Source: Eledone cirrhosa
Lineage: Eukaryota
Reading direction: 5' to 3'
Length of the DNA: 64,000 bases
NCBI GenBank assembly: GCA_964016885.1
Contig: OZ024743.1
Span: forward strand, 15,748,001-15,812,000
Both the position numbers and the translations under genes were made by a program. Below, one piece after another: positions 18,358 to 59,333 of this stretch (position 1 is the stretch's first letter; each line of letters opens with the position of its first letter). Below the pieces are notes generated by a model. It searched no databases. It was not told the origin of the DNA and saw only the letters and a program-made list of their open reading frames with translations.

Positions 18358-19113
18358 TTTTTCTGTACCATCATAGTGTTTTTTGAGTATTGTATAATTT
18401 ATTTTTCCTCATTTACTCTGTAACCCAGTATGAATCGATTTGTATATATTGTTTATTGTAAATGTTAGTACATTGTTAACATATTATCATTATATTATTA
18501 TTGTGACATCTATATTGTTTGTGTAAATTAACCGGGGATTATCTATTATATTATATTGAATTATATAATTTTATTGTTTATTATTTATTATATGTGTCTC
18601 TTGTAATTATATCATATTATTGCCTCATGTATATTGGGTAGATGTATTGGTATTATTTTCACTCTTATCATGCTTATTTTTATATTCAAACTTCTAATAA
18701 GGCTTAATTTGTGTAGTTGAACATAGATGTGCGTATTGTTGTATATGTGTGTGTGTGTGTGTGTGCGCGCGCACCTATATACATGTATATATTGTACTTT
18801 TTGATTTTTAATTGTAATTTTAATGTTGGTAAAGGTATATTAGTATAATGTATTATGTTATATTACATTGTGTTATATATAATTCCTGCTCTATATAACC
18901 ACATTTGTTTAGCTTTAGGTTAGTTGCTTTGGACTATATTTGTAATATGGTTCTTAATGTTATATACATCCTTAGTTATTCTTATTATATATTTTTATTA
19001 TTTTTATTTTTATTTTTATTATATTTTTTTGCAAGACTTTAGTGTATGTACACTCCATATTCTTCGGAGCTTCCGGCTTGTATCTGCCGATATTACTTCT
19101 TGTTGTTTTGATT

Positions 19114-19151
19114 GCCCTGATGAGTCCTTAATAGGACGAAACATTGTCGGC
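19114..19151 (+). ncRNA. Canonical minimal type I hammerhead ribozyme
   Basis: GCC-CUGAUGA-GUCCU-UAAU-AGGAC-GAAA-C-AUU-GUC-GGC, followed by AAUAAA. Confidence 0.9.
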
Positions 19152-19343
19152 TAATAAAAACTTTTGATGTATTAAAGGATTGTTTGTTTTACTCTCTTAA
19201 TTTTTTGGCTCTGTTTAACTGTTTACTGTCATTTCTATAATACGAAGAGGGTGTTTAACTCCAACACGCTCCGGTATTTTAATCCTTATATATATATATA
19301 TACATAATTATATACAAAGATATTATATGTTTATTATCATTGA

Positions 19344-35742: not shown

Positions 35743-35749
<7 letters not shown>

Positions 35750-36206
35750 AAGTTAAATAAAAGTCAAATGATTAAAATTTAGCTTCGTTTATTACTGCTA
35801 TATATATTTCAGTGACAGCCATTTTTGGCTGTGACCTCTTCAGGCAGTTTGAATTAGTATGGTATAGACAAGTACATATGTTGTTGAGGTGAATGATTCC
35901 AGTTCCACAGTGAAATAATAACCCAACAAGGAACTAGGCATATCAGAGTATTGACAATATTATACACCTCAACAACATATGTACGTGTCTATACCATACT
36001 AATTCAAACTGCCTGAAGAGGTCACAGCCAAAGATGGCTGTCACTGAAATATATATAGCAGTAATAAACGAAGCTAAATTTTAATCATTTGACTTTTATT
36101 TAACTTTATTTTACACTACTCCGGAGTAACCAAACCAACCTGCGCACTTCGTCGAGTGCTCCAGCCTGCATACTAAGGTGTTTGTATACAACCAACATAA
36201 ACTCAA

Positions 36207-37134: not shown

Positions 37135-37300
37135 TATCCTTACACCTGAGCCAGGAATTGTTTGCATCCGTAAGACTGTCGGAGAAATAGGCCAATGCTG
37201 GCTGTCAAATTATTTTCCTGAAACGCTGCCTAAAAAACGATGTCATCCCCAACACCATCAGGAACATCCGCTTACCAGTAAGCCTACGTACACCTAAAAA
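37135..37300 (+). pseudogene. Penelope-like ORF N-terminal relic
   Basis: Peptide IIFLKRCLKNDVIPNTIR, an FLxRC...IP motif seen at the start of PLE ORFs. Confidence 0.5.
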
Positions 37301-37533
37301 AAAAAAGACCGAAATATATAGGGACAATTAAATCTCTGCCAAAGTAACTCACTCTCGTGTTGTTATTTTAATTTTATCCTTTATTATCTTTCCTTCATTC
37401 CTCTACACGTCTTATACACACTACGCATCTCAACGTACACCCACTTACATCTCTCTCTCCACCACCGGATCTTGTTACCCGGAGATTTACCCATTTGCAT
37501 TGTCGTGGCTTCCAAACGACTTAAATATATTTA

Positions 37534-37684
<151 letters not shown>

Positions 37685-38280: not shown

Positions 38281-39305
38281 CTTCAACACTGCCACAGCAA
38301 ACCTACCGATCATTGCTCAAAGTAATGAATTAAAAGGCTTAATCACAGATCGATCTTTGACTCTTAGTAAAAGACAGCCGAAAAATTTGAAGCAATTACT
38401 AACAAAAGCAAAGTTTGACCTTAACAACAAAGACCAATCATTCACTGTATCTAAATGCAATGATAGTCGATGCGGCACATGTCAATCCATACACTCCGGT
38501 CAATATATGAAAACAAAAAAACTGGAAATATATTCCCAAACGCAAATATGAAATGCAAAAGCAGAAATCTAATTTACAGCATTAAATGCCCGTATTGTGA
38601 AGAACTATATGTCGGTCAAACTGGAAATGCACTATCGGACGTGCACAGGTACAACGACAGTAAATCAGAGACCCAAATGTCCGTCAGATACCCCTATGTA
38701 AACATCTAGCAACATGTGGTCAGGGAATATTTATAATATTCCCATTCTACAAATTACACAGCCCAGGTGAAATCAAGAGAAAAATCAAAGAAAAGAATGT
38801 TATTGATAAATTCAAACCCAAGCTAAATGAACATTAATAATGGGGTTTCCTACTATCACTATGACTACGACCACGAACAACAACGACAACAACAATAATA
38901 ATAATAATAAAAGTGATGTTGATAGTGATGATTACTAGAAAATGCTATTTTCATCATTTCTAAAAATAGCAAAACAATTGATGCTTTGGATAGGGTAAAT
39001 TAAGTAGTCGTTGGACATGCTCAACCAACCGTGACGCCTAAACCAATCAGCTTTTGTAATCCAGTGAAACTACACACCGATTGGTCGAAATACAGTTTGC
39101 AAGATTTAGCATTCTGGAGCACAAAATTTACCCATTTCATTACAGTTAAAAATTGCAAACTTGACTGTCACCACACATTATAAACCTGAAGATTGCGAAA
39201 GCATGAAAGTATTTGTTCAATTAACACTTAACATTTAATATTCCACCATACTATTTCATTCTAATACCATTATACATTTTAAAGGATTGTAAATAAAACG
39301 AGTAA
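38281..39305 (+). mobile_element. Penelope-like element 3' part (Zn finger plus GIY-YIG, Neptune-like), frameshifted; decayed HHR at 39183-39217
   Basis: [42 protein letters not shown]; AAC-CUGAAGA-UUGC-GAAA-GCAU-GAAA...GUU. Confidence 0.85.
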
Positions 39306-39380
39306 ATCAGACAAAGTTGGAATTACTTTTATTAATATATCTATATATATATCTATATATATATATATATATATATATAT

Positions 39381-40639
39381 GAATTAGAACCCTGTAACCA
39401 TTAAGCTCTAAGTATAAAGTACAAATAAATACTGAGCCGATTAGCAATATATAGTAAGAAACACAGTAAACCGTGTGTCTAAAATTACAAGGGTTGAAAA
39501 ACCACATATGCTTGAAATATTTAACCAAGAAACAGACAGGATGACCAAATGAAAATAAAGATATATTATCATAATACAAACCGCCTCAATAACCATTATA
39601 TCTCTCGGACAGATTATCCCTAATCTGTTTCGCCCTGAGTGTGTTTGTAACAGATAATCCTGGGCTTCATCAGCGAGAGATTTCAATTAAATGTCACAAA
39701 CACTATTTGCCAACGTTCACACAGAAAGATGAATTTATCACCTCATGCGCCGCCAGTCAAACGTGGTAAGCGCGTATTGAACAGAAATAACAGTCCAACA
39801 CGCACAACTTAATAGCTCATCCTGTAAGAGAGCCGAAATATATATATATGAATTAGAACCATGTAACCATTAAGCTCTAAGTATAAAGTACAAATAAGTA
39901 TAAAGTACAAATTTATCACGAGGTGATAAATTCATCTTTCTGTGTGAACGTTGGCAAATAGTGTTTGTGACATTTAATTGAAATCTCTCGCTGATGAAGC
40001 CAGGATTATCTGTTACAAACACACTCAGGGCGAAACAGATTAGGGATAATCTGTCCGAGAGATATAATGGTTATTGAGGCGGTTTGTATTATGATAATAT
40101 ATCTTTATGTTCATTTTGTCATCCTGTCTGTTTCTTGGTTAAATATTTCAAGCATATGTGGTTTTTCAACCCTTGTAATTTTAGACACACGGTTTACTGT
40201 GTTTCTTACTATATATTGCTAATCGGCTCAGTATTTATTTGTACTTTATACTTAGAGCTTAATGGTTACAGGGTTCTAATTCATATATATATATTTCGGC
40301 TCTCTTACATGATGAGCTATTAAGTTGTGCGTGTTGGACTGTTATTTCTGTTCAATACGCGCTTACCACGTTTGACTGGCGGCGCACGAGGTGATAAATT
40401 CATCTTTCTGTGTGAACGTTGGCAAATAGTGTTTGTGACATTTAATTGAAATCTCTCACTGATGAAGCCCAGGATTATCTGTTACAAACACACTCAGGGC
40501 GAAACAGAGTAGGGATAATCTGTCCGAGAGATATAATGGTTATTGAGGCGGTTTGTATTATGATAATATATCTTTATTTTCATTTTGTCATCCTGTCTGT
40601 TTCTTGGTTAAATATTTCAAGCATATGTGGTTTTTCAAC

Positions 40640-40642
<3 letters not shown>
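39381..40642. mobile_element. Non-coding 468-nt HHR monomer, arranged in tandem and inverted
   Basis: Minus run 39381-39910 and plus run about 39918-40642; period 468. Confidence 0.9.
39983..40063 (+). ncRNA. Hammerhead ribozyme with stable stems (copies at 40451-40532 plus and 39600-39681 minus)
   Basis: AUCUCUCG-CUGAUGA-A-GCC(C)...GGGC-GAAA-CAGAUUA-GGGA-UAAUCUG-UC-CGAGAGAU. Confidence 0.9.
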
Positions 40643-40701
<59 letters not shown>

Positions 40702-42550: not shown

Positions 42551-42656
42551 CCCCACCTACCCCCCACTCTCCTGAGCGTGAATTTAATAAACATTTATTG
42601 TACTGCCTCTCTGTTCTGTCCCTGTTCAATTTTTCATTATATATATATATATATAT

Positions 42657-44018
42657 ACGTGCCCCAACGACTTTTTTTAGCCGTTGCTCGCGCCAACCTG
42701 AGGTATATGGCCTTTAATGCGACGAAATGCCTACGACGGTTGGAAGGCCACTGATGAGGACAAACTTTTTCATATGTAACACATTTGCAGCGCCGCAGCT
42801 CCATTATTATTATATTTACACATATATTTTTTCCTCCGCTGCCACCAGTCTGTTTCGTTCTTTGTGTCTTTACCCTTTCTAGCAGTCTCTCTCTCTCTCT
42901 GTTAGCCTCTTCCTCACCTTTCACTCACTCACTCTCTGTCACTACCTCTCCTCCTCCCCTTTCTTCCCGTTTGACCTGTCCGTAATCCTTTTCTCGCGGG
43001 CACTTGGCCAAGCCGGTATGAATTTTTTTTCTCTCTCTCTCGTCTGCGACTTCACAGAACTTATGTTTACCGAATTCGCAGACCAGACCCCTTCTTCCTC
43101 CCGTTAGACCTGTGCGAAATTCCTTCCTTGCTCACATTTCAACCAGGTTTGATGGTCTTTATTCTCTCATTCACGATTCCACCGAATTTATATTCATAGA
43201 CATCTGGGACTTGTTTCCTTCTTCATCACTTTCTGTTGCTTAAACCATTTTGTTTATTTACCCTAGCGTCCCCTTTATTTACGTGTCCCAACGACTTTTT
43301 TTAGCCGTTGCTCGCACCAACCTGAGGTATATGGCCTTTAATGCGACGAAATGCCTACGACGGTTGGAAGGCCACTGATGAGGACAAACTTTTTCATATG
43401 TAACCCATTTGCAGCGCCGCAGCTCCATTATTATCATATTTACACATATATTTTTTCCTCCGCTGCCACCAGTCTGTTTCGTTCTTGGTGTCTTTACCCT
43501 TTCTAGCAGTCTCTCTCTCTCTCTGTTAGCCTCTTCCTCACCTTTCACTCACTCAATCTCGGTCACTAACTCTCCTCCTCCCCTTTCTTCCCGTTTGACC
43601 TGTCCGTAATCCTTTTCTCGCGGGCACTTGGCCAAGCCGGTATGAATTTTTTCTCTCTCTCTCTCTCGTCTGCGACTTCACAGAACTTATGTTTACCGAA
43701 TTCGCAGACCAGACCCCTTCTTCCTCCCGTTAGACCTGTGCGAAATTCCTTCCTTGCTCACATTTCAACCAGGTTTGATGGTCTTTATTCTCTCGTTCAC
43801 GATTCCACCGAATTTATATTCATAGAAATCTAGGACTTGTTTCCTTCTTCATCACTTTCTGTTGCTTAAACCATTTTGTTTATTTACCCTAGCGTGCCCT
43901 TTATTTACGTGTCCCAACGAACTTTTTTAGCCGATGCTCGCACCAACCTGAGGTATATGGCCTTTAATGCGACGAAATGCCTACGACGGTTGGAAGGCCA
44001 CTGATGAGGGACAAACTT

Positions 44019-44023
<5 letters not shown>
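42657..44023. repeat. Head-to-tail array of about 2.2 copies of a ~625-bp unit between (TA)n tracts
   Basis: ACGTG.CCCAACGA at about 42657, 43281 and 43907. Confidence 0.92.
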
Positions 44024-44074
<51 letters not shown>

Positions 44075-54898: not shown

Positions 54899-56570
54899 TG
54901 TTATGTTTTGGGAGGGTCATGTTGCCAATAAGAAACACACGCAAGAAGTTACTTTCACTTCAATTTATTATAAATTAAATTTATAAATTTCCGGTTGGTT
55001 GGTTGGTTCCACAACCAGACGATTGTTCATATATTGACAAAGTTCTTTCGTCACACATTATGTGACCTCTTCAGTGACTGGGGATTATTTTCTTTGTATT
55101 TGTGCCTCTCCTTTGTTCTGTCCTACACCATCTTGTTTTTGTGTGTGATGTGTGCTTAGTTTGCGCATGTGTTACATCCGGGTGTCTGTGTGTGTTTATA
55201 TTTGTTTATTTACATGTTACTGGTTGGTTGGTTGTTTTATGCGTGTGTGTGTTTTCATTTTGTCCTTAATTGTAAGTTGTTATGTTGCTGTTCCCTTCAT
55301 GTTTTCTATTTAATTTTGGTTGGAGTTCATTTATGTTTATTGTCTCTGTGATTTGTCTAAACATTACGTCTTTTCTGTGTGTAGATTCTATTTTTATTTC
55401 TATGTTCTCTAATTTACCCTTATGTTCTATTTTAGCATGTTGGTGGAGTACAGACGATTCTTTACTATCTTGAAGCTTTCGCCAGTGTTCAGTTATCCGT
55501 TCCCCTATACTACGAGCTGTCTCACATATGTACACTATATTCTTATCTCTACATTGTCCTTCAGTACATCTTATGCTATATACTACATTTCCAGTTTTAC
55601 AGTTAATATGGGGGCTTAGTTTACAGATTATATATTTCTTATCTATACAGGGAGGGCTTTGAAAAGGTTATGTATTGCTAATAAGTGTTTTTATGGAGGT
55701 AAATGGTCTTTCTACTATCTTAATATTGAGTTTATGTTTATCTAGGGCCCTTCTAAATTTGTAAGCTAATTCACCTCTAGGGGTTGTATCGATGAACATT
55801 ACACTCTGGTATTTATTTCTATCATACCACGAGTTTATTCTATTAAGCTTATTCCTAGTTCGTTCTATTCTATTCCAAAATTTGCTCCTATACAAGAGGC
55901 AGGTCCCATTTGTATCATTATTTACCATTTTTCCCCATTTGGTTCTGGCTCCTCTATATACTCTGATTTTATCTCTCTGATTGTAACCAAAGAACTGCAT
56001 ACGGTGATGAAGTGTTGTATGTGTCTCTCTAGTTCTTTGTGGTTGCACATGCGGGACACGTTTCTCATCACCCGTACCAAATCCGCAATCAGTATGTTGA
56101 TTTTGGTATGGACCGAAACAGCTGAGTTTCGGTGGATCAGATATTTGGAAGTCATAGGTTTGGCATAATGGGAATGGAGGATTTGTTTTTTGTTATTAAT
56201 GGTATCTAACCAGAGCTCTGTGTCTAGTACAGGTAATCGATGGTTGGGGTGTTTGCTTGGGTAGTCTATAGTAATTCTAATACTCTGGTGGATGGAGTTA
56301 GCTATTTGTTGGATGCTTTTCATGGTGTTTTTCTCTAATTCCTGACTGTTCTCTAGTGGGGGTGTTTTTACTACGATGTTTATATCATCAACGTAGCGGG
56401 AGTACATTATCAGGGTTAAGAGGTTGCTGTCTTCTAATTGTTCTTTAAGTTTATTCTCGCACCATACCATGAATAGGTTAGCTATGTCACCTGCAATGCT
56501 AACACCAATGTCTGCTCCCTCCTCTTGGGCATATGTTTTTCCATTAAATTTGAACATAAAACAACATAAA
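54899..56570 (-). mobile_element. Penelope-like element (RT plus GIY-YIG, frameshifted), with HHR at 55036-55078
   Basis: YAQEEGADIGVSIAGDIANLFM, YSRYVDD, LPVLDTELW, NVVYSIRC...YICETARSIGERITEH, PKLNRK; CUGAAGA-G-GUCACA-UAAUG-UGUGAC-GAAA. Confidence 0.9.
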
Positions 56571-56636
56571 GCATAACAATATCGGTTTAAACACACGTTT
56601 TCAGATGAAGAATCTTGCTAAACAAATTCAGAAACG

Positions 56637-56672
<36 letters not shown>

Positions 56673-57829: not shown

Positions 57830-59333
57830 TTTAAACAATTAAGTTAAAGTGTACATCTACATATGTATACGGAAGTATTAGTATGCATATAAATACACAT
57901 ATGTATACATATGTACATGTTCCGAGCTTTTCACTAGACACTTTGCAGTGAGTGTCTAGCTAGTCTGTATGTAAACACACAGACGAACCGGGTTTTAAAG
58001 TCATACGGGTTTTCAAGGAAACACACTTCCTCTATTCCCCAGAGAGCCAGACAGGAATATTGGACTAGTTTCGATGTTATTACATCTCATCAGCAATATA
58101 TACCTATCTTCTGGCTTCTCCGGAGAATTGTCAAAGCACATATCGTTATATGCTTTTTCTATGAAAATCAGTAGTGGGCAGACTAATTTGCATAGAACGT
58201 GAGTCATTGTACGCGCCGGTTCAGCGGAAACGATAAAAACAAATAACGAAACGAAATTAAATTTCGTTTCGCTTCTAACTCACTTTTGTATGACTGACGC
58301 TTAAACAATTAAGTTAAAGTGTACATCTACATATGTATACGGAAGTATTAGTATGCATATAAATACACATATGTATACATATGTACATGTACCGAGCTTT
58401 TCACTAGACACTTTGCAGTGAGTGTCTAGCTAGTCTGTATGTAAACACACAGACGAACCGGGTTTTATAGAAAAAGAATATAACGATATGTGCTTTTACA
58501 ATTCTCCGGAGAAGCCAGAAGATAGGTATATATTGCTGATGAGATGTAATAACATCGAAACTAGTCCAATATTCCTGTCTGGCTCTCTGGAGAATAGAGG
58601 AAGTGTGTTTCCTTGAAAACCCGTATGACTTTAAAACCCGGTTCGTCTGTGTGTTTACATACAGACTAGCTAGACACTCACTGCAAAGTGTCTAGTGAAA
58701 AGCTCGGTACATGTACATATGTATAAATATGTGTATTTATATGCATACTAATACTTCCGTATACATATGTAGATGTACACTTTAACTTAATTGTTTAAGC
58801 GTCAGTCATACAAAAGTGAGTTAGAAGCGAAACGAAATTTAATTTCGTTTCGTTATTTGTTTTTATCGTTTCCGCTGAACCGGCGCGTACAATGACTCAC
58901 GTTCTATGCAAATTAGTCTGCCCACTACTGATTTTCATAGAAAAAGCATATAACGATATGTGCTTTGACAATTCTCCGGAGAAGCCAGAAGATAGGTATA
59001 TATTGCTGATGAGATGTAATAACATCGAAACTAGTCCAATATTCCTGTCTGGCTCTCTGGAGAATAGAGGAAGTGTGTTTCCTTGAAAACCCGTATGACT
59101 TTAAAACCCGGTTCGTCTGTGTGTTTACATACAGACTAGCTAGACACTCACTGCAAAGTGTCTAGTGAAAAGCTCGGTACATGTACATATGTATAAATAT
59201 GTGTATTTATATGCATACTAATACTTCCGTATACATATGTAGATGTACACTTTAACTTAATTGTTTAAGCGTCAGTCATACAAAAGTGAGTTAGAAGCGA
59301 AACGAAATTTAATTTCGTTTCGTTATTTGTTTT
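57830..59333. mobile_element. Non-coding 470-nt HHR monomer, arranged in tandem and inverted
   Basis: Period 470 (57831/58301 and 58481/58951); orientation flips at about 58468. Confidence 0.92.
58530..58572 (+). ncRNA. Canonical minimal hammerhead (copies at 59000-59042 plus and 58057-58099 minus)
   Basis: AUAUUG-CUGAUGA-GAUGU-AAUA-ACAUC-GAAA-CUAG-UC-CAAUAU. Confidence 0.92.

Follow-up and report, generated by a model that had tools for sequence, protein, structure and literature searches.

The window analysed here, a stretch of 64,000 nt, carries at 39369–40642 what is probably a recently inserted copy of a non-coding repeat of ~470 nt that is dispersed in the genome and has a predicted hammerhead ribozyme (HHR). 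The repeat (family U) is most readily understood as a non-autonomous Penelope-like element (PLE), i.e., a non-LTR retrozyme, copied in trans by the reverse transcriptase (RT)/GIY-YIG enzyme of a PLE. Its insertions share two fixed ends and a mirror-image layout with Penelope, and it has therefore likely spread by means of a Penelope enzyme. Typical of PLE insertions are the partial tandem with an inverted, 5′-truncated copy, the tail on one side and the microsatellite target, while the head-to-tail HHR repeats, the lack of an ORF and the dispersed copies are features of non-LTR retrozymes. A more detailed scenario can be put forward only tentatively: that U is a long-lived, viroid-like animal retrozyme whose circular RNA combines a monomer-competent HHR with a covarying blocker, that an asymmetric PLE dimer copies a single circle from both cut ends, one start being always long and the other short, and that templates are swapped with the RNA of a helper PLE (PLE-P) and with other retrozymes.

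Architecture of the locus

The locus is a head-to-head pair of arms of a 468/469-nt unit, embedded in (TA)n, which bears out the original prediction of a 468-nt HHR unit in tandem and inverted arrangement. The arms comprise 1.14 units (minus strand) and 1.56 units (plus strand) and are 98–99% identical to each other. Their period is 469 nt in the minus arm and 468 nt in the plus arm, where one C is missing, and nt 39917–40384 were taken as the reference unit of U. The left (TA)n target tract (39335–39380) fuses over its last 12 nt with the (TA)6 long end of the element itself. The inverted arm (39900→39369, minus strand, 532 nt) is 5′-truncated, has its 3′ end at the long site (unit position 366–378), one of the two 3′ end sites of the family, and contains an internal (TA)6 tract at 39838–39849. 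The head-to-head junction (39878–39932) includes a 17-nt direct duplication (39878–39894 and 39895–39911) and a 10-bp hairpin (39910–39919 with 39923–39932).

The direct arm (39917→40642, plus strand, ~730 nt) consists of 39917–40384 followed by 40385–40642. It carries the short-end site, a short TA run at 40209–40216 (unit 293–300), and a 'tail' at 40217–40294 that spans the two end sites and is terminated by the (TA)6 tract at 40283–40294, the long-end site of this arm; the internal TA tract noted at the outset is present in both arms. The 3′ end of the direct arm lies at an atypical TA-like site (unit position ~258–261), next to the right (TA)n target tract (40643–40701). Both arms enter (TA)n at their 3′ ends, and the pair is of the long + other type, which is atypical for the family.

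No long ORF was found in the unit, only frames of ≤94 aa, several of which enter TA tracts. The unit is non-coding, and the RT + GIY-YIG ORF that characterises an autonomous PLE is absent from it. A bacterial promoter scan gave results at chance level and is irrelevant here. Elsewhere in the window, nt 42652–44029 are occupied by a possible further non-autonomous element, a 624-bp tandem unit (~2.2 copies, 94–97% identical) that is bounded by TA tracts and has a CTGATGAG motif close to where it begins.

Dispersal and the two fixed ends

The genome searched is AT-rich and 3.0 Gb in size. Family U gave at least 132 matches in the 40 scored of 1477 candidates; its HHR core had 233 exact genome matches (control, 0) and a 21-mer from the tail had 193. 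The repeat was present in three contig sets, one of which has a second organism code and partial coverage. Ends were mapped at 69 loci, a non-random sample made up of the 40 top-scoring loci, 9 found by a tail pattern and 20 from pattern lists, with one duplicate (L008) and one 44-nt fragment left out.

The 3′ ends of the 113 arms at these loci fall at two sites ~70 nt apart (66–78): 59 are long (unit 364–380) and 47 short (298–305), with seven elsewhere. A TA-rich flank adjoins 105 of the arms. The 5′ ends are scattered across the whole unit, and 15 of the 30 that are unpaired adjoin the TA flank. Dispersed copies with variable permutation had been anticipated; the dispersal is evident from the HHR-core matches, but the 3′ ends are fixed and only the 5′ ends vary. 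The 5′ ends of long arms seem to cluster close to the short site, but this is not claimed as a feature, as locus selection and short arms can yield it.

Among the 43 head-to-head pairs, 37 combine a long and a short end and six a long and another end, and none has the same end twice, so that exactly one long end is present in every pair. If the ends were chosen independently and evenly, 43 unequal pairs would arise with a chance of 0.5^43 = 1e-13. TA-like microhomology occurs at both start sites, and head-to-tail arrays reach seven units.

Sister families and the 470-nt family

A looser HHR pattern retrieved 367 more cores (control, 5), which belong to families X, Y and W, ~61–76% identical to U. 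The W pairs follow a similar distribution (eight long + short, two short + other, no same-end; one array counted once). The window itself contains a 470-nt family, V, at 57831–59333, with a minimal HHR whose stem III is palindromic and with 909 candidates in the genome. Copies of V end at ~404 and at 330–336, again ~70 nt apart, and the pairs at 20 loci comprise eight long + short, one long + long and one other. At the long-end site V, W, X and Y have 3–5 nt of TA-like sequence and no TA tract. The (TA)6 of U is therefore a derived feature, and the tract is dispensable at the long end, because the sister families stop there without one.

The absence of similarity between U and V, noted at the outset, was upheld: their local score of 23 is at shuffle level (22.4±2.7), with 73 of 200 shuffles as high. 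Kinship at the sequence level was likewise rejected with a profile built from relatives, which missed V as a separate target (E ≤ 10); the best match of the profile there in the window had E = 6.8. An AT-rich U–V alignment of 48 nt is out of register with the ends. At one locus (L037:2054–2973), a junction that lies 290 nt away from a U insertion links ~25 nt of U with a V-like copy at the 5′ end of the latter; this U-to-V junction is single in the genome, and a recombinant family was therefore rejected.

An abundant repeat of varying length occupies the short-end site, directly 5′ of the tail, at 12 of the 30 tail loci of X and Y (L245, L247, L248, L251, L253, L257, L259, L264, L266, L267, L271 and L273). 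We take this repeat to be SINE-like. The short-end site may be a hot spot for it, or the repeat may be a stable passenger.

Template of the two arms

Subfamily-diagnostic mismatches are rare between opposite arms (20/1077) and between tandem units (30/2015), compared with 64367/203271 between loci. In 28 typed pairs the arms agree wherever they overlap; two pairs that had appeared discordant were typing artefacts, their alleles being identical in the arm overlap. Gene conversion, or the activity of a single subfamily in any given period, would also produce matching haplotypes. Of the locus-private alleles, 105 are single-copy, 12 occur in all copies of their locus (six of these across both arms) and 12 in some copies only. 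The last group, of which eight are in L050, is not explained by a single monomer template. The private alleles of this 5.7-unit array alternate among units (1+3, 3+5, 2+4), which suggests a dimer-wise duplication or a dimeric template.

Half of the arms (57/114) exceed 475 nt. The HHR cut site was crossed 117 times, with one stop where 1.9 were expected, and the template was therefore continuous there, as a circle or an uncleaved multimer. The genomic 5′ ends show no enrichment at the cut site. While 37 of the 43 head-to-head pairs are nested, the other six are nested in neither direction. Each arm of these six therefore needed an RNA template, and pure fold-back is excluded for those loci.

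The hammerhead and its predicted blocker

Judged from its sequence, each unit carries a type I HHR (stem I open), with the core (CUGANGA, GAAA, NUH) intact and three helices. The lengths originally given for stem I (8 bp) and stem III (7 bp) were confirmed, the latter with an additional conserved A15.1–U16.1 pair; stem II has 4 bp. Stem III is closed by a GGGA loop, the cleavage triplet is GUC and loop II is 26 nt long. One extra A lies between A9 and G10.1, and a strict HHR scan that disallows it missed the U-type HHR for this reason; an Rfam scan gave no match on this HHR at E ≤ 1. Relatives have 1–3 extra nucleotides at this position, with 2–3 instead of one in the sister HHRs of L175, L178, L182 and related loci. 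Two further features of the window are an inverted repeat at 35743–36113 with HHR-like cores at 35794–35848 and 36008–36062, and a weak Rfam Hammerhead_1 match at 19111–19155.

Only one of the three HHR copies at the locus is intact, that at 39681–39600 (minus strand), where the cut is predicted after nt 39608. The copy at 39983–40063 (plus strand), which had been suggested for a cleavage assay, is damaged in that it is one C short in stem II (3 bp, not 4). In the third (40451–40532, plus strand), stems I and III are altered by substitutions and the HHR fold is lost. When 20 sequences of the four families U, X, Y and W are compared, pairing is kept in 94.6% of the HHR stem cells. Double changes occur at 4 of 20 stem pairs, mostly from the W lineage, whose stem II was misaligned in this comparison. 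Among four relatives, conservation is 83–100% in the HHR vs 61–83% in the remainder of the unit.

In isolation the HHR is predicted to fold well, with stem probabilities of 0.94–0.98. Once the 30 nt that precede it in the unit are included, the pairing probability predicted for stems I and II is only ~0.1, and in the full monomer, linear or circular, it is 0. The segment responsible is predicted to be that at 39692–39706 (minus strand), which is complementary to loop II (39652–39638); the damaged copy has its counterpart at 39958–39972, with a loop II target at 40011–40025 (plus strand). The duplex has a predicted energy of −20.0 kcal/mol vs −13.5±2.0 for shuffles, none of 300 being as good. 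It outperforms shuffles in five of six family representatives (U, a 72% relative, X, Y and W; 0–14/500), whereas in X2 it does not exceed them (57/500). Partners also appear to be matched within lineages: the W segment reaches −17.9 with the W loop and −7 to −12 with U-type loops, and the reverse swap behaves likewise, although in one W copy a downstream segment pairs almost equally well.

These results predict that the conserved upstream segment holds the HHR off by pairing with loop II. The energy gap between the on and off states of the monomer is small (3.7–4.3 kcal/mol, tertiary contacts being ignored), and a bistable switch is therefore predicted. The idea that the HHR could act as a monomer thus fares well for the isolated ribozyme and poorly in context, and since the blocker is predicted to shut the HHR off, monomer cleavage is uncertain. 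The minimal stem III of V would require a dimer, whereas a monomer-competent HHR would require a lock for its circle to survive.

Autonomous PLEs as possible helpers

Immediately outside the element, at 38281–39330 (plus strand), lies a 3′ fragment of an autonomous family, PLE-A, with a frameshifted GIY-YIG region and a terminal repeat; this fragment and the U insertion have the left (TA)n tract in common. PLE-A (L122–L123) has a 4202-bp unit with many open 775-aa frames, is of high copy number and has ends 61 nt apart. Its terminal repeat contains a minimal HHR-like motif, and its CxxxxCxxC linker is Neptune/Nematis-like, a placement made from a published description (PMC8557442) alone. Copies of a second family, PLE-P, are 98–99% identical, with (TA)n flanks. 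Both families encode an RT with a C-terminal GIY-YIG domain and both have two ends like U; on sequence grounds they are candidates for active families in this genome.

Within 69 U loci, 70 loci of the sister families and 30 tail-pattern loci, no ORF-linked parent with a U-type terminal repeat was found. Comparison of U with PLE-A and PLE-P, the two families covered, revealed no similarity (the genome has 22010 RT candidates, 150 of which were scored). Twenty-seven of 88 unpaired 5′ ends adjoin a TA flank. The 61 other junctions include two same-orientation fusions to PLE-P and none to PLE-A. At the complex locus L171 (252–1597), an inverted arm has the long end of PLE-P as its terminus; the direct arm passes from PLE-P into U and stops at the U short end. 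At L206 (1497–3516), a PLE-P copy that includes its 5′ end is fused to W within the endonuclease region, and no PLE-P remainder follows. Template switching in a common particle is a candidate explanation for both chimeras; alternatively, the element could have inserted beside a PLE-P copy whose end was then deleted.

PLE-A adjoins U in the window but was rejected as its parent, lacking sequence similarity and having no chimeras, although it is still a possible helper. PLE-P is the more likely mobiliser. Two other PLE-related sequences were seen in the window: an internal deletion derivative of PLE-P at 37135–37534 (~160 nt of the 5′ start and ~230 nt of the 3′ end, flanked by TA tracts), and a broken RT + endonuclease-like ORF at 55400–56650 (minus strand) from another PLE-like family, 5′-truncated at a TA tract.

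Mechanism and alternative explanations

In the preferred reading, a PLE RT/GIY-YIG enzyme would cut both strands within a (TA)n tract, and each of the two DNA ends would prime reverse transcription on a single RNA (or a single RNP). Synthesis would begin at two internal start sites 66–78 nt apart, aided by a few bases of TA-like microhomology. Arms that exceed one unit would arise from a template continuous over the HHR cut site, either a circle closed by ligation or a multimer left uncleaved. Head-to-head joining of the cDNAs would then take place through microhomology or a short templated patch. With its long stem III the HHR would be able to cut as a monomer, while the upstream segment, by pairing with loop II, would keep it off, a form of blocking that may be likened to that of viroids and plant retrozymes.

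The inverted arm might instead stem from a single priming event, after which the first cDNA, or an antisense template, folded back and primed its own copying, an origin that has been proposed for Penelope (PMC3846280). The 10-bp hairpin at the window junction, the near-equal 5′ ends of both arms at several loci (161/162, 156/156, 257/256) and the predominance of nested pairs are in keeping with this, and identical arm haplotypes would be directly explained by it. However, in the six pairs nested in neither direction, neither arm could have been copied from the other, and as a general account fold-back is unlikely. Slightly less likely still is the scheme of the original prediction, in which the internal TA tract primes on a nicked (TA)n target and a freely self-cleaving monomer gives rise to circles and variable permutations. 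It has in its favour the 59 of 113 arms that stop at the tract, a coincidence found when insert ends at the 69 mapped loci were compared with it, the 47 that stop at a second short TA run, the unpaired 5′ ends that adjoin TA flank (half of those in U), and the high predicted stem probabilities of the isolated HHR. Against it, arms of V, W, X and Y end at the equivalent long site although they have no tract there, the tract is read through internally wherever an arm exceeds one unit, the 3′ ends are fixed, and the HHR is predicted to be off in context. The tract marks the long end in U, but priming does not require it, given that the sister families and V end at the equivalent site with 3–5 nt of TA-like microhomology.

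The upstream segment could also be read in the opposite sense, as an activating pseudoknot with loop II that docks stems I and II and makes the HHR a fast monomeric ribozyme. About 40% of natural HHRs are described as using a stem I/II pseudoknot (PMC3088659), the folding program is unable to model pseudoknots, and the covariation of segment and loop II would be expected here too. The predicted duplex, however, takes up ~17 bp of a 26-nt loop vs 4–6 bp in the examples published there, and a helix of this length would be hard to thread through a closed loop. Such a pseudoknot is possible but distinctly less probable than not. An origin without an RNA intermediate, by satellite or other DNA-level duplication or through an assembly artefact, is very improbable: some loci do form short arrays of up to seven units, but the fixed 3′ ends with variable 5′ truncation, the spread over many chromosomes and the conservation of the HHR above the remainder of the unit speak against it. 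Copying of a retrozyme RNA by a PLE enzyme from two cut ends is thus retained as the preferred reading.

Comparison with known systems

Several elements of this picture are already known from the literature covered, namely non-LTR retrozymes, their proposed PLE origin, the tandem, inverted and tailed layout, the two RT starts and the extra nucleotide after A9. Family U itself was not found described in the publications covered (including PMC6962438; most subscription literature lies outside this scope). The same literature yielded no PLE tail or inverted arms on retrozyme insertions, no rule of one long end per pair, and no animal retrozyme that combines a covarying blocker and a long stem III.

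Metazoan non-LTR retrozymes are described as small, non-coding, tandem type I HHR units of low GC content, dispersed and coexisting with PLEs (Cervera and de la Pena 2020, PMC7229834; Li, Clavereau and Pollet, bioRxiv 10.64898/2026.07.22.740005), and U resembles them in all of these respects. They are proposed to be non-autonomous PLE derivatives, and the second report gives homology to the terminal repeats of autonomous PLEs for 24 of 57 retrozyme families, whereas no parent terminal repeat was found for U in the comparison with PLE-A and PLE-P. The U unit, at ~470 nt, is longer than the 170–400 nt reported for invertebrate retrozymes, and its inverted arms, fixed ends and tails are absent from the published retrozyme descriptions covered. 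Its long stem III also sets it apart from metazoan retrozymes. The predicted self-pairing blocker of U is missing from most of these, according to the sections of PMC7229834 covered, where predicted HHR blocking is noted for some mussel circles only and self-pairing blocking is said to be typical of plant LTR retrozymes and viroids. If real, the covarying off-switch would explain how a retrozyme circle of the U lineage avoids cutting itself.

The HHRs of fungal and protist PLEs are described as type I with a large helix III and as capable of acting as monomers, like that of U, although these elements are EN-minus, telomeric and non-animal; helix III in metazoan HHRs usually has 1–2 bp (PMC4209133). 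An extra nucleotide between A9 and G10.1, a hallmark of PLE HHRs in the same account, is also present in U.

The insertions of EN+ PLEs, as far as they are described (PMC8557442, PMC3846280), are like those of U in combining a tandem with an inverted 5′-truncated copy, in having a tail on one arm only and in targeting microsatellites. They differ in that U has no ORF and in the length of the tail, which is 66–78 nt in U (~86 nt in W) vs a published 30–40 nt. The mobilisation of animal retrozymes by PLEs has so far rested on co-occurrence and sequence trees, whereas in U the PLE footprint is seen directly at the insertions. Because the unit is short, the rule is easily recognised, with one long and one short end, the same haplotype in both arms and some arms that are non-nested, and the data bear on how the tandem, inverted and tailed structures of PLEs form. 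For such work U offers a 470-nt template and two candidate active enzymes, those of PLE-P and PLE-A. A biochemical counterpart is anole Poseidon, for which in vitro work reports that both strands are cut and that the RT starts at two internal sites (PMC11167929); there both strands used both starts equally, whereas each U pair has exactly one long end.
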